This document shows, one piece after another, positions 4,824 to 22,900 of a stretch of 26,217 bases of DNA. Origin of the DNA: an uncultured Thiotrichales bacterium. GTDB taxonomy: Bacteria > Pseudomonadota > Gammaproteobacteria > GCA-2400775. The notes under the pieces are model-generated. The model was not told the DNA's origin. It saw only the letters and a program-made list of their open reading frames with translations, and did not search any database. The position numbers were made by a program, and so were the translations under genes. The stretch covers positions 1-26,217 of the forward strand of contig CAYUKF010000006.1 in NCBI GenBank assembly GCA_964445215.1, given 5' to 3'. Each line of letters begins with the position of its first letter. Position 1 is the first letter of the stretch.

Positions 4824-5747
4824 ATGATGGATGATCGTGACGGCGTCATTTGGTTTGACGGCGAGCTAGTACCTTGGCGTGAGGCCAAGATACATGTTTT
4901 AACGCATACCCTACATTATGGTTTAGGGGTATTTGAAGGCCTACGTGCCTATAAAACAGAAAAAGGTGCTGCGATTTTTCGACTGCAAGAGCACACCGAC
5001 CGTTTATTTGATTCAGCGCATATTCTTAATATGCCTATGCCTTATAGCAAGGATGAAATCAATGCGGCTGTTATTCAGGCGGTTGCTGAAAATAATCTGG
5101 ATTCAGGCTATATCCGCCCAATGTGCTTTTATGGCTCCGAAGGCATGGGGCTGCGCGCCGATAATCTAAAAACCCATGTCATTGTCGCCGCCTGGGCCTG
5201 GGGCTCTTATATGGGCGAAGAGAATATGGTCAATGGTCTCCGAGTACGGACCTCTTCGTATACACGCCATCGTACCAACATCACCATGTGCCGTGCCAAG
5301 ACCAATGGTAATTATGTTAATTCAATGATGGCACTGAGCGAAGCCTTGGCAGTTGGTTGTGATGAGGCTTTGTTGCTTGATGTCGATGGATTCGTTGCCG
5401 AAGGCAGTGGCGAAAATATTTTCATCATAAAAAATAATGTCCTGTATACGCCAGATTTGAGCTCTGCCTTGGCTGGTATTACGCGTGATACCATGTTTAC
5501 CTTGGCGCGTGAATCAGGCTATGAGGTGATAGAAAAACGTATTAGCCGTGATGACGTCTATATTGCTGATGAGGCCTTTTTTACCGGCAGTGCAGCCGAA
5601 GTAACGCCCATTCGCGAGCTTGATGGTCGCGCCATTGGTCAGGGTGGTCGTGGTCCAGTAACCGAAGAATTACAAGCGTTATACTTTGATCAGGTTCATG
5701 GGCGTCGTAGTGAGCATGCACAATGGTTGCGTTACGTTAACAAATAG
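4824..5747 (+). CDS. ilvE: Branched-chain amino acid aminotransferase (PLP class IV)
   Basis: DRDGVIWFDG, THTLHYG.GVFEG.RAY, YIRP, AK..GNY.NS (catalytic Lys), EGSGENIF, LAGITR, FFTGSAAEVTPI. Confidence 0.97.
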   Translation: MMDDRDGVIWFDGELVPWREAKIHVLTHTLHYGLGVFEGLRAYKTEKGAAIFRLQEHTDRLFDSAHILNMPMPYSKDEINAAVIQAVAENNLDSGYIRPMCFYGSEGMGLRADNLKTHVIVAAWAWGSYMGEENMVNGLRVRTSSYTRHRTNITMCRAKTNGNYVNSMMALSEALAVGCDEALLLDVDGFVAEGSGENIFIIKNNVLYTPDLSSALAGITRDTMFTLARESGYEVIEKRISRDDVYIADEAFFTGSAAEVTPIRELDGRAIGQGGRGPVTEELQALYFDQVHGRRSEHAQWLRYVNK

Positions 5748-6012
5748 TACTCCAACAACCTTGTATTGATAGGTTCAGCGAACCAAGAAGCAGTCAGATG
5801 CTAGGCGCGCTTACGCAGGGCTAGTTATTCTAGCTCAAGTAAGTGCAACAACGCAGATGGCTGCTTCTTGGCTCGCCCGAAGGGGGCCAGCCAAATGTAC
5901 CACTACGGCGTTGCAGCCCTTGACAAGGCTACGTGCCCTCGGGGTGCAACAAGCCTTGTATTGGTACATTTGGCTGGCTCTGAACCTATCAATACAAGGT
6001 TGTTGGAGTACT
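5746..6012. mobile_element. MITE-like structured repeat, 267 bp, with perfect 33-bp terminal inverted repeats
   Basis: AGTACTCCAACAACCTTGTATTGATAGGTTCAG (5746-5778) is the exact reverse complement of 5980-6012; inner stems 5778-5795/5859-5876 and 5886-5902/5962-5978; CGCCCGAAGGG at 5874-5884. Structure is seen directly; mobility is inferred. Confidence 0.8.
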
Positions 6013-6067
6013 GGCCTGGCGCTATAACTATGGCTTTAAGTCATTTGGAGAGAGTGTTTTGGTACAG

Positions 6068-6286
6068 ATGAATACACCGGGAAATACATCGGGCAACACC
6101 GATCTTATTGAGCCGAACGCGCAAAACCGTTATGAAGTGACCCAGGCAGACTTGCCATTACATTGCCCCATGCCTGGCATGAGTTTATGGAACTCGCATC
6201 CGCGCGTATTTTTGCAAGTTGAAGAAAAAGGCGAGACAAAGTGCCCATACTGCGGCGCTGACTACGTATTGGTTGAGCAGAGTTAG
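6068..6286 (+). CDS. Small zinc-finger protein (zf-CHCC family)
   Basis: DLPLHCP...WNSHPRVFL....GE.KCPYCG..Y pattern; commonly follows ilvE. ATG 6068 preferred over the track's TTG 6059. Confidence 0.88.
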   Translation: MNTPGNTSGNTDLIEPNAQNRYEVTQADLPLHCPMPGMSLWNSHPRVFLQVEEKGETKCPYCGADYVLVEQS

Positions 6287-6436
6287 ATTTCTCTATAGTT
6301 ATTTATAGTGTCATGGTTCTACACTGGTGATATTGAGTTTCTAACAAGATGCGGAAAAAGCCTCATATGGCACGATACGACGCTATACCCTCGAATTTTG
6401 CCTTTATAACCCTGTGGGTTTATTAAGGATTTAGCA

Positions 6437-7834
6437 ATGCCAGGATTTATTGCCTGCGGTCATGCCACCTTGTTGCGCACTCACCTGAGACTTTTTCAAC
6501 AACCTGCTAGAATTGTTCCCGATAAGAATCAATATTCTCGCAACAGGGGAAAACGTATTAATATTACCCGTCTACAAAGTAGTTTTGCCGTAGATAAGGC
6601 ATTGGCTGAATACCCACTTTTATCTAAAGCTGTATATTTATTGCTCGTTGCCCTGTTTTTATTTAGCTTTATTTCTAAAGCGGGTATCAATATTTTTTGT
6701 GGGTTGGCTTATTTATGTTCCGTGGTTTTGCTTTGGCGGCTTGGCTTGAGATCGTTGCGCGATTACCCGTGGTGGGTGCTTTTTTTAATACCCGTTTTAA
6801 TAGGGATACCGCTGTCAGCGTTAACTGAAGCAGGTGGAATCTACGAAATAGGGCAATATCTAACGCGTTTTAAGTTTTTCATTTTGCCTATAGCCATTAT
6901 CTTGGTAGCTCGTAACAAAAATGCCTCAATGGGTTTGCTTGTTGCTGTGTGGGTGTCTGCGCTAATAGCTACTCTTTATGGATTTAGCCAGCCTGAGCAA
7001 AGAGTGTTAGGGAACTTTGAAGGTTTTCACTTTATTCTGCGTAACGCAGATATGCTAGTTATTGTTATATTGACATTAATAGTATTTTTATTTGACGAGC
7101 ATTTTAGGCAGCAATATAGCAATTGGTTCTGGGTACTATTTCTATCGCTACTATTATTAAGCGCTGGGCTACTAATGAGCGCCGCTCGTGGAGCCTGGCT
7201 AGGGTGTTTTCTTGGTATGGTGGTGTTCAGCCTTCTATTCTATAGACGATTTTTTATCATTATTGCCATTGTTATTGTTACATCACTATTTTTTTTCGGT
7301 GAGAGTGAGTTTATACATGAAGCTAAATCAATATTTGATTTTAGCGCTAATTTTTCCAATAACGCGAGACTTCAACTATGGCAAGCAGGGTGGGATTTCT
7401 CACAGAAACAATTTTGGTTTGGAGCAGGTTATTCTCAGGTAGAATCATTATTTCTAGATCACTTTTTTAGTCAATCAGTTAGTTATCAACAACAGTACGC
7501 TCTTGCAGTCTTATTTCCATGGGATTTTCACAATAGTTATTTACAGATATTAGTAGAATGGGGCGCAGTTTTCTTTGGCATATTTATGCTCTGCGGCGCC
7601 GTGTTACTTGTTAACCTATACCGCTCTATACATAGAACGATGAAAGAAAATTGTGCGGTTGTGAAAGCGGCAGTCGTTGTTTCTTTTGGTTATCTGCCCA
7701 TACAGTTCTTTCACAACGAACTTTATGGTTACGGTACGGTTATTTATTTATTATTGTTGACCGTAGCCTTGTCTGCAAAAACATGGCAATCCTCTGAGCA
7801 GAGCTTGCAGAGTAGTGAGGTAGATGCTGCTTAG
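6437..7834 (+). CDS. waaL: O-antigen ligase family membrane protein
   Basis: About 10-12 hydrophobic segments, SAARGAWLG, periplasmic loop with RLQLWQAGW and HNSYLQILVEWG; located in an LPS cluster. First ~50 aa are atypical, so the start is uncertain. Confidence 0.82.
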   Translation: MPGFIACGHATLLRTHLRLFQQPARIVPDKNQYSRNRGKRINITRLQSSFAVDKALAEYPLLSKAVYLLLVALFLFSFISKAGINIFCGLAYLCSVVLLWRLGLRSLRDYPWWVLFLIPVLIGIPLSALTEAGGIYEIGQYLTRFKFFILPIAIILVARNKNASMGLLVAVWVSALIATLYGFSQPEQRVLGNFEGFHFILRNADMLVIVILTLIVFLFDEHFRQQYSNWFWVLFLSLLLLSAGLLMSAARGAWLGCFLGMVVFSLLFYRRFFIIIAIVIVTSLFFFGESEFIHEAKSIFDFSANFSNNARLQLWQAGWDFSQKQFWFGAGYSQVESLFLDHFFSQSVSYQQQYALAVLFPWDFHNSYLQILVEWGAVFFGIFMLCGAVLLVNLYRSIHRTMKENCAVVKAAVVVSFGYLPIQFFHNELYGYGTVIYLLLLTVALSAKTWQSSEQSLQSSEVDAA

Positions 7835-14567: not shown

Positions 14568-14734
14568 TTAAGGAAGCTCTGAATAAGTCTGGGTGAATTT
14601 AGGCTGAGATAAAGTCGTTGCAATTGGTTTCGAAGTGAGCGGCAATAGTCGCTCTCTTGCTGTGATCTTCGCAACCAATTGGAGCGATTTTAGCCAGCGT
14701 AAAACAATCATGACTTGCTTTAGGGCTTCCTTAA
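14568..14734. mobile_element. 167-bp nested-hairpin MITE-like repeat with TTAA ends, overlapping the tolC 3' end
   Basis: Outer stem TTAAGGAAGCTCTGAATAAGTC (14568-14589) pairs with 14712-14734 (22 bp, 3 G.T, one bulge); inner stem 14611-14635/14667-14691 (25 positions, 2 G.T, 2 mismatches); innermost GAGCGGC-AATA-GTCGCTC. Confidence 0.7.
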
Positions 14735-16838: not shown

Positions 16839-17104
16839 GTACTCCGTCAAGGTGATAATATCGGGTTCAGCGTCACAGGAAAGTTGTTCTGCACGGCGCG
16901 CTTTCGAAGCGCATAGCGGAGCCACGTCAAGAAAGCGTAACACCGCAGAACGGCTTCCCTGTGGCGCCCGAAGGGCTTGTCTGTCTGTGCCCACGGACGG
17001 CGTTGCTTTTCTCTCGACTTGGAGCCACCAAGCCTTCGAAAAAGCGCCTAGCCGTGAACGCAGACAGACAAGCTGAACCCGATATTATCACCTTGACGGA
17101 GTAC
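16839..17104. mobile_element. MITE-like structured repeat, 266 bp, with perfect terminal inverted repeats
   Basis: GTACTCCGTCAAGGTGATAATATCGGGTTCAGC (16839-16871) is the exact reverse complement of 17072-17104; inner stems 16870-16892/16945-16967 and 16976-16987/17061-17072; CGCCCGAAGGG at 16965-16975. Confidence 0.8.
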
Positions 17105-17130
17105 AGGATGGTATCCTATACCGCAACAAG

Positions 17131-19165
<2,035 letters not shown>

Positions 19166-22676: not shown

Positions 22677-22735
22677 TGGTGGCCAGGGACGGAATCGAAC
22701 CGCCGACACGGGGATTTTCAATCCCCTGCTCTACC
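22677..22735 (-). pseudogene. Exact 59-bp copy of the 3' part of tRNA-Phe (mid D-loop to CCA), with a degenerate 5' continuation to about 22765
   Basis: 22677-22735 is identical to 22825-22883; the tRNA 5' acceptor strand is not conserved in the copy. Confidence 0.85.
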
Positions 22736-22824
22736 CTGACGCTGCGCGTCCCCGCTACCCTGCGTTGTAGTTGGGCAATAAATTTATTATTAATGGTTTC
22801 ACGCATATTGGACACGTAAATAAA

Positions 22825-22900
22825 TGGTGGCCAGGGACGGAATCGAACCGCCGACACGGGGATTTTCAATCCCCTGCTCTACCGACTGAGCTACCTGGCC
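22825..22900 (-). tRNA. tRNA-Phe (GAA)
   Basis: GGCCAGGTAGCTCAGTCGGTAGAGCAGGGGATTGAAAATCCCCGTGTCGGCGGTTCGATTCCGTCCCTGGCCACCA: 76 nt, full cloverleaf, GAA anticodon, encoded CCA. Confidence 0.98.

Follow-up and report, generated by a model that had tools for sequence, protein, structure and literature searches.

The window, by which we mean the whole 26,217-nucleotide stretch of DNA that was analyzed, contains two full copies of a noncoding element and the remainder of a third. Copy A (positions 5747 to 6011) measures 265 bp from GTAC to GTAC and copy B (16839 to 17104) measures 266 bp, in agreement with an earlier description made from the sequence alone (the sequence-only reading), which had reported copies of ~266 bp bounded by GTAC. 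The third copy (1 to 147) is cut off by the contig start. Copy A is preceded by a target TA (5745 to 5746), which lies inside the TAG stop codon of the open reading frame at 4824 to 5747, and comparison of empty and filled sites places the right target copy, now TG, at 6012 to 6013. Copy B lies 22 nt upstream of a TPP riboswitch, that of thiC. The element has no open reading frame of its own, and nearly all of its bases are paired.

When folded as single strands, copies A and B each gave a three-way junction as the MFE structure, with energies of -174 and -161 kcal/mol, respectively (z = -16 and -15 relative to dinucleotide shuffles). This is the multiway junction of left arm, mini-hairpin and right arm that had been proposed. 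A terminal stem of ~33 bp encloses two head-to-head 97-nt modules and a CCC-GNA-GGG mini-hairpin; its 33-nt arms are 100% complementary in both copies, as expected from the 32 to 33 bp previously claimed. In copy A, the left terminal arm, that is, the terminal inverted repeat (5747 to 5778, + strand), is followed by the left module (5779 to 5875, +), the central CCC-GAA-GGG mini-hairpin (5876 to 5884, +), the right module (5884 to 5980, -) and the right terminal arm (5980 to 6011, -). Copy B has its left module at 16870 to 16967 (+), the CCC-GAA-GGG mini-hairpin at 16967 to 16975 (+) and its right module at 16975 to 17073 (-). What is left of the third copy is an incomplete left module, the mini-hairpin, the right module (19 to 116, -) and the right terminal arm, which ends in ..GACACTACAC|TA. 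The central motif had been rightly placed near the middle of the element, and only the counts needed correction: around CCCGAAGGG there are 129 and 127 nt in copy A and 128 and 129 nt in copy B, rather than 127/127 and 126/129.

A single covariance model, R1, recognizes five modules in the window, including one, the left module of copy B, that was absent from its training set. The scores were 70.8 bits (E = 7e-17) for the left module of copy A, 64.5 bits on the - strand and 26.6 bits on the + strand for its right module, 49.8 bits (E = 3e-11) and 59.3 bits for the left and right modules of copy B, and 91.6 bits for the third copy. Since this one model matches both arms on opposite strands, the arms are indeed head-to-head homologues. 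The right-arm motif reported earlier, ACGGCGTTGC...GCCTTG, is what the conserved core CAAGGCG...GCAACGCCG gives as its reverse complement, and the third copy in which it occurs is that at 1 to 147. From the outside in, each module consists of a basal stem of ~20 bp, an internal loop, a 7-bp stem, a small loop (gcag / cAa) and a 7-bp distal hairpin. The internal loop contains a few near-invariant bases, C-AA-G-GC on its 5' side and AAC-g-C-c-G on its 3' side.

Twenty-eight full elements, drawn from at least 10 genomes, measure 259 to 265 bp and can be aligned end to end. RNAalifold assigned 88 pairs to this alignment, 73 of which show compensatory changes. The consensus of the terminal arm over the 28 elements is GTactccnnCaangtnatAntnnnggattcagC, and all 28 keep the CGCCC-GNA-GGG center; in its C(GNA)G loop the first G and the third A are conserved and the middle base varies. 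The stems of different copies had been called unrelated in sequence. Given the shared terminal-arm consensus, together with module stems that fall into a few subfamilies recurring in distant genomes, this was an overstatement, and the stems are diverged relatives with compensated changes. Elements with two modules always carry them in the order +/-, and the reverse order was never seen. Each strand thus has a sense module in its 5' half, an arrangement like that of two transposon ends set back to back.

Insertion sites and target duplication

Copy A is absent from the closest relative of the window's genome (G008), whose flanking sequences are 94% identical. The empty site there reads AACAGC-TA-GCCTGG, and the filled site reads ..TA-[GTAC..GTAC]-TG-GCCTGG, so the stop codon of the upstream open reading frame lies within the CTAG used for the insertion. 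Contigs from seawater metagenomes carry copy A at its site; those covering positions 4900 to 6900 run into the copy from both sides, and none has a joint that skips the element. The site of copy B is empty in five relatives (G005, G008, G002, G004 and G006), with GC-TA-GG at the corresponding point in G008. Conversely, elements found in G008 (contig C126, a 92% identical copy), G005 (C97) and G004 (C36) have empty counterparts in the window's genome. Overall, at each of the five sites tested, one genome has the insertion and a sister genome lacks it. These data bear out the description of the copies as nonautonomous, TA-flanked MITE-type repeats.

The size of the target duplication can be seen at the G005 C97 site: the BLAST matches of the two flanks have exactly 2 nt in common, and GGT-TA-GGCA has become GGT-TA-[element]-CA-GGCA. 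Across 27 elements, TA adjoins the left end in 22 and the right end in 15. The 4-mer formed at each junction is CTAG in 30 of 54 cases, and the others are mainly CTGG (5), CCAG (3), TTAG and CTAA; the inner G/C of the junction is invariant and the outer flanking bases vary. At copy B the junctions read CA|GTAC..GTAC|AG, the T expected on either side being absent, and the empty site of the sister genome is C-TA-G. A decayed TA duplication and a CAG..CAG 3-bp repeat with TAC..GTA ends explain these junctions equally well. Copy B also prompted us to consider a 4-bp CTAG duplication with TG..CA ends, as in IS3/IS481-like elements. This model was rejected because the outer flanking bases differ among insertions and the inner G/C never does, and because the overlap at the G005 site is 2 nt.

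The element therefore has the general features of a MITE: it is small and noncoding, has terminal inverted repeats, duplicates its target, occupies polymorphic sites and is present in many copies. We consider it probable that the copies are a nonautonomous DNA transposon of this kind, which duplicates the TA of CTAG-like sites, is mobilized in trans and carries a structured module. Each half of the element resembles one transposon end, made up of a terminal inverted repeat of ~33 bp followed by a 97-nt subterminal hairpin module. The two halves meet at the C(GNA)G mini-hairpin, and the total length stays within 259 to 265 bp. Since the element encodes nothing, its movement would depend on an enzyme supplied in trans.

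Covariation and strand asymmetry of the module

Covariation in the module is very strong. Among 126 modules taken from genomes other than the window's, standard pairs fill 94.3% of the pair cells, compared with 59.6% after shuffling and 36 to 43% when the partners are slid. Double-sided changes occur in 34 of the 36 module pairs, and the covariation score is 0.84 versus 0.19. The terminal stem behaves similarly: over 28 elements, 95.4% of cells are paired versus 67.7%, and 179 cells are double changed versus 55. Because the alignments were fitted to the model and include many related copies, the significance suggested by the shuffle controls is inflated; the effect is still very large. Compensation is slow. 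The pair of copies that are 92% identical show 10 broken pairs and 7 G-U pairs with no double change, which indicates that compensatory changes accumulate among spreading lineages rather than through instant correction of one arm by the other.

Selection on the module is also strand specific. The consensus pairs include 264 G-U pairs and only 32 A-C pairs, and the MFE is lower for the + (sense) strand in 79 of 105 modules (p = 1e-9). With R1, 91.6 bits were obtained in the sense orientation against 24.2 bits in the antisense orientation, the antisense score being a third or less of the sense score. From stems that drift in sequence and stay paired, a few unpaired bases that are nearly invariant, and tolerance of G-U on one strand, we infer that the module functions in the form of a folded single strand. 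This agrees with the earlier suggestion of an element recognized by its shape plus a few motifs and acting in single-stranded form, given that structure is kept beyond sequence, the unpaired motifs do not vary and wobble pairs are strand specific.

If so, the subterminal module would have to adopt its fold on the inward-running strand of each end, most likely for propagation of the element and less likely for a benefit to the host. The folded strand could be DNA that becomes single stranded in the course of transposition or replication, or RNA transcribed inward from one end or the other. C(GNA)G triloops form very stable DNA mini-hairpins. Together with the tolerance of G-T pairs, the presence of such a mini-hairpin makes our guess lean toward single-stranded DNA, RNA also being possible.

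Sibling MITEs and candidate mobilizing enzymes

The same module is carried by other MITEs. In one complete genome (G037), an IS5-family insertion sequence (NF033581; 315 aa, 1,256 bp, ~70 copies, end AGGAATCTCTGATTAAGTCC) adjoins a 263-bp sibling MITE that has the same terminal repeat and two R1 modules. The MITE and the insertion sequence together form a 1,519-bp unit, of which a copy at a second site is 99.9% identical. A sibling class with RGGARCCTCTGATT ends and 4-bp YTAR flanks is present in ~45 copies in the window's genome, where the intact copies are ~170 bp long and several have one module. A third type of end, TTAACCCGGCAAGGG.., bears the module in other families. The module therefore occurs within at least three unrelated kinds of MITE ends, and since module and junction are seen with different ends, they are cargo that has swapped its outer ends at least twice.

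The adjacency in G037, where a sibling MITE shares its ends with an IS5-family insertion sequence, makes mobilization in trans by a DDE transposase plausible for elements of this kind. One explanation is accordingly that an IS5-family transposase, either of the IS427/IS711 type or a relative of the G037 enzyme, moves the element and is supplied only occasionally, for example, by plasmids or by insertion sequences lost during MAG assembly. The IS427/IS711 group duplicates TA within YTAR, which fits the TA-within-CTAG target found here, and the sibling class, with its YTAR flanks, shares its terminal repeat with the G037 insertion sequence. The G037 sibling MITE bears the same two modules, and its subterminal sequence resembles the inner terminal stem of the GTRC class (the elements with GTRC... 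ends, to which copies A and B belong), a likeness seen by eye without a scored alignment. Against this, the outer 20 nt of the GTRC class are unrelated to the IS5-type terminal repeat. The 4-bp YTAR duplication and GG/GA ends of the IS5 group are found in the sibling class and are lacking in the GTRC class. NF033580, the model of the cognate IS427-type transposase, had no match over the cutoff in 10 genomes, high-copy ones included. IS5_4 transposases were not associated with the module (14 of 41 module-positive and 29 of 109 module-negative genomes of the class; p = 0.42), and four element-rich genomes (G126, G027, G092 and G093) have no such gene. We regard an IS5-family mobilizer as possible, if doubtful.

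The sequence-only reading had proposed instead a MITE moved by an IS630-like (IS630/Tc1-mariner type) transposase. Duplication of TA at CTAG is the classic IS630 target preference, and this duplication (copy B being atypical), together with long terminal inverted repeats, is what we observed. The corresponding DDE_3 transposase with matching ends was missing, however. All nine genomes examined from the genus lack it, as do the high-copy genomes G126, G027, G037, G040, G084, G092 and G093, and in the class it was rarer in genomes with the module (7 of 41) than in those without (35 of 109; odds ratio, 0.44). On present evidence, the mobilizer is not an IS630-type transposase, and we consider this explanation of the element very unlikely.

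A further possibility is a REPIN-like element that moves as single-stranded DNA by means of an HUH tyrosine transposase (RAYT/IS200-like) reading the hairpin shape and its bulges. It would account for structure being kept more than sequence, for the invariant unpaired bases and one-strand wobble and for the C(GNA)G triloop, so stable as a DNA mini-hairpin. RAYT-like genes were also enriched in module-positive genomes (31 of 41, versus 56 of 109 module-negative genomes; odds ratio, 2.9; p = 0.009), an association that genome size can produce. The transposase tallies over 151 genomes (DDE_3, IS5_4 and RAYT) include one unpublished genome, G047, on which no claim rests. Inspection of the flanks led us to drop RAYT as a partner: in G126, G027, G115, G093 and G040, the canonical RAYT genes have GTAG-type REPs of their own on their flanks, the nearest 1 kb or more being free of the module, and 240-aa Y1 genes are flanked by other inverted repeats. 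Moreover, G001 has six Y1 genes and no module, and G004 has 12 modules and no Y1 gene. The element duplicates TA, and we know of no target duplication made by HUH elements. Movement by an HUH enzyme is, in our view, highly improbable.

A search for a transposase gene between matching ends, as suggested in the earlier description, found none bracketed by GTRC.. ends. Autonomous insertion sequences with the same ends are the one general MITE feature that we did not find for the GTRC class; only the sibling class has one, in G037. Several candidate parents were examined and rejected. Module pairs ~0.75 and 1.3 kb apart (loci L060/L058) and long-spaced ends in G126 (L189, ~2.9 kb; L190) enclose ordinary host genes; the genes at these four loci include those for a pentapeptide-repeat protein, a YhcB-like protein and a DegS-like protein. 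An IS4-like element (G000, C20) adjoins a truncated copy, has unrelated ends and is not followed on its far side by the remainder of that copy, and an insertion sequence on G000 C219 has no matching end. The GTACTCC motifs on C269 and C137 are coding sequence rather than element ends. Transposases of the rve type are sporadic, and G008 has none.

Within the MITE interpretation that we favor, it is not obvious why a DDE cut-and-paste enzyme that acts on double-stranded ends should lead to selection of an internal single-strand fold. Tentatively, the 97-nt module could be a structured DNA or RNA recognition element for an unrecognized mobilizing or host factor, passed between transposon backbones. 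This reading would explain its conservation in about a quarter of the sampled gammaproteobacterial families despite the lack of a cognate transposase.

Distribution, genomic setting and known systems

The window's genome is a 1.9-Mb MAG (77% complete, 292 contigs) in which between 116 (nhmmer) and 123 (covariance model) modules were counted, 27 head-to-head pairs among them. Many of these copies lie at contig ends. The other genomes of the genus have 98, 65, 45, 12, 9, 1, 0 and 0 modules. In an even sample of the class, with one genome per family, the module was detected in 42 of 151 genomes (covariance model, E <= 1e-4), often with scores as high as those in the window's genome. A sample of the phylum added one family outside the class, with the module in 16 of its 36 genomes. 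Hosts of the exact pattern include "Ca. Thiodiazotropha," Sedimenticola, Thiolapillus, Stutzerimonas stutzeri, Pseudomonas profundi, Chromatocurvus, Methylococcales and others. Viral contigs contained no exact match to the module core, and plasmids gave a single weak 72-nt match, to an Azotobacter plasmid. Comparison with Rfam returned no family at the gathering score, and at E values up to 10 just generic miRNA-hairpin models far below threshold, so there is no known-family match in that database. A literature search covering MITE, IS and REP families and marine bacteria did not find a description of the family.

Alternatively, the module could be an RNA or DNA signal maintained mainly for the host, with MITEs as its vehicle; it might end or stabilize transcripts, direct processing, donate promoters or bind nucleoid proteins. 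It is shared by MITEs whose ends are of at least three unrelated kinds, it is under strand-specific selection and its copies lie mostly between genes (of 60 solo modules, 6 overlap a long open reading frame). Copy B, 22 nt before the thiC riboswitch, contains an outward promoter-like site (CAGACA-16-TATTAT, 17061 to 17088). Other observations argue against a host role: insertions are not fixed, all five tested sites differing between sister species; modules per genome range from 0 to more than 120 within one genus; there is no common neighboring gene; and no U-tract terminator is present. Nor do solo modules face their flanking genes in a consistent direction: 5 are co-oriented and 17 anti-oriented in the window's genome, whereas the numbers are 8 and 2, respectively, in other genomes. 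We therefore consider retention mainly for the host unlikely.

Our preferred interpretation, a trans-mobilized MITE with a structured module, places the element in an ordinary kind, since it works like Correia, ERIC or RUP-type MITEs without having sequence in common with them. What is out of the ordinary is its fixed geometry, its transferable covarying module and the missing mobilizer. MITEs are usually seen as passive, decaying deletion products that are functional just at their ends, yet in dozens of bacterial families this element has kept its three-way geometry fixed and its module both covarying and strand specific. If the fold is needed for movement, it would imply a single-strand step or a cofactor in an undescribed TA-targeting transposition pathway; if it serves the host, the element would be a widespread structured noncoding element missing from Rfam. 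In practical terms, the family disrupts metagenome assemblies, and its insertions hit stop codons and promoter regions. The presence or absence of insertions also provides a set of markers for population studies of marine Gammaproteobacteria at the strain level.

Among the closest parallels are the Correia elements (CREE/NEMIS) of Neisseria, which are small noncoding palindromic repeats of ~100 to 155 bp with a TA duplication and long terminal inverted repeats. They are confined to one genus, where they number dozens to hundreds of copies, fold into hairpins and can donate promoters; to our knowledge, no transposase has been established for them. The element described here has no sequence relation to them, is longer (259 to 265 bp) and occurs in dozens of families, and its paired covarying subterminal modules and fixed three-way junction are absent from Correia elements. 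ERIC/IRU sequences (MITEEc1) of Enterobacteriaceae and Vibrio are imperfect palindromic intergenic repeats that are reportedly transcribed and folded. The comparison with ERIC made in the sequence-only reading holds as an analogy and does not extend to sequence, as 5,426 complete E. coli genomes showed no similarity to the element, which also differs in size and architecture.

Among transposase-linked MITEs, those derived from IS630, for example, RUP with IS630-Spn1, duplicate TA and share the CTAG preference of IS630. The element has TA and CTAG in common with them, whereas the genus and the high-copy hosts lack DDE_3 and no insertion sequence with matching ends was found. With IS5-family MITEs and the G037 insertion sequence (NF033581), the sibling class shares modules and ends, and CTAG/YTAR-type targets are held in common; in contrast, the element itself has GTRC... 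outer ends, a 2-bp rather than a 4-bp duplication and no association with IS5_4.

Two other systems invite comparison on account of their folds. REP and REPIN sequences, thought to be recognized as folded single-stranded DNA, resemble the element in being hairpin-forming extragenic repeats in inverted pairs. The element is several times larger and duplicates TA, and the local RAYT genes are flanked by short GTAG REPs instead. Integron attC sites are recognized by their folded single-strand shape and a few extrahelical bases, and the sequence of their stem is free to vary. Here the analogy is one of principle: the element forms no arrays, is accompanied by no cassettes or integrase, has other motifs and is inserted at dispersed TA sites. 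As a minor observation, comparison with the G008 copy shows that the distal part of the right module of copy A holds a piece resembling a small REP-like hairpin.

IS5-type ends and Y1 genes

The window contains a nested hairpin of 167 bp (14568-14734) that begins with TTAAGGAAGCTCTGAA and finishes with GGGCTTCCTTAA. Both belong to the IS5 type of end that is found in the sibling MITE class, some copies of which carry the same 97-nt hairpin module as the ~265-bp elements. When the 14568-14734 hairpin was searched with R1, the covariance model for the module, no match was obtained. In another genome, G037, a two-module MITE directly adjoins an IS5-family IS (locus L184, 702-2220), and the two have their ends in common. 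The MITE and the IS have been duplicated jointly in this genome as one 1,519-bp unit (L184 and L187), which is followed in L187 by a tandem second IS copy.

Multi-copy Y1 (RAYT-like) genes of 230 to 290 aa, flanked by 26- to 27-nt inverted repeats, are present at loci L012, L176 and L177 in genomes G008, G040 and G126. The repeats center on GGGGTCAGA in L012 and L176 (G008 and G040) and have another sequence in L177 (G126). These genes behave as IS200-type elements. They were considered as partners of the module and rejected as unrelated, since they carry inverted repeats of their own.

A separate REP-like hairpin and the spread of the module

A separate REP-like hairpin of ~29 nt, with the core GTGCCCYYGGGGTG, has 64 copies in the window's genome, G000. 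Sites were recorded at window positions 5925-5950 and on three other contigs (C17:1691-1985, C19:4570-4862 and C9:18519-18604), and inverted doublets also occur. Some elements enclose a nested copy, which brings their length to 293 to 295 bp, and part of the right module of copy A (5747-6011) has been replaced by a piece of this hairpin.

At one site, G008 contains a 276-bp element (C137:8520-8796), and the counterpart in G000 is an unrelated 38-nt stretch (C129:2230-2267). This stretch qualifies neither as a copy of the element nor as an empty site with clean edges, and it might represent a footprint or a replacement. In the phylum sample, the module was found in 16 of 36 genomes of one family outside the class, f167, and all remaining families sampled from other classes were without it. 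This confinement to f167 suggests that the module spread horizontally into one lineage.

Copy B, neighboring genes and other window features

A TPP riboswitch (17127-17228; 63 bits) follows copy B (16839-17104) after a gap of 22 nt and precedes an ORF of 631 aa (17270-19165) that we take, from its position, to be thiC. The right arm of copy B contains an outward promoter-like site, CAGACA-16-TATTAT (17061-17088). When copy B inserted, it may have split the original promoter or taken its place. By crude ORF calling, solo modules between same-direction genes in G000 were anti-sense in 17 cases and co-oriented in 5; in loci from other genomes, 2 were anti-sense versus 8 co-oriented.

On the minus strand, two tRNA matches (22680-22751 and 22828-22900) are separated by 77 nt. 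The second is weak, at only 36 bits, and was noted in the sequence-only reading as a tRNA-like copy with an inserted hairpin. At the start of another ORF (6437-7834), contig word depth in four seawater/subsurface metagenome runs jumps from ~6-60 to 430-1,590 over ~45-130 nt (6441-6574). The short sequence there is very widely shared, and many metagenome contigs terminate at 6468 and 6510-6516.
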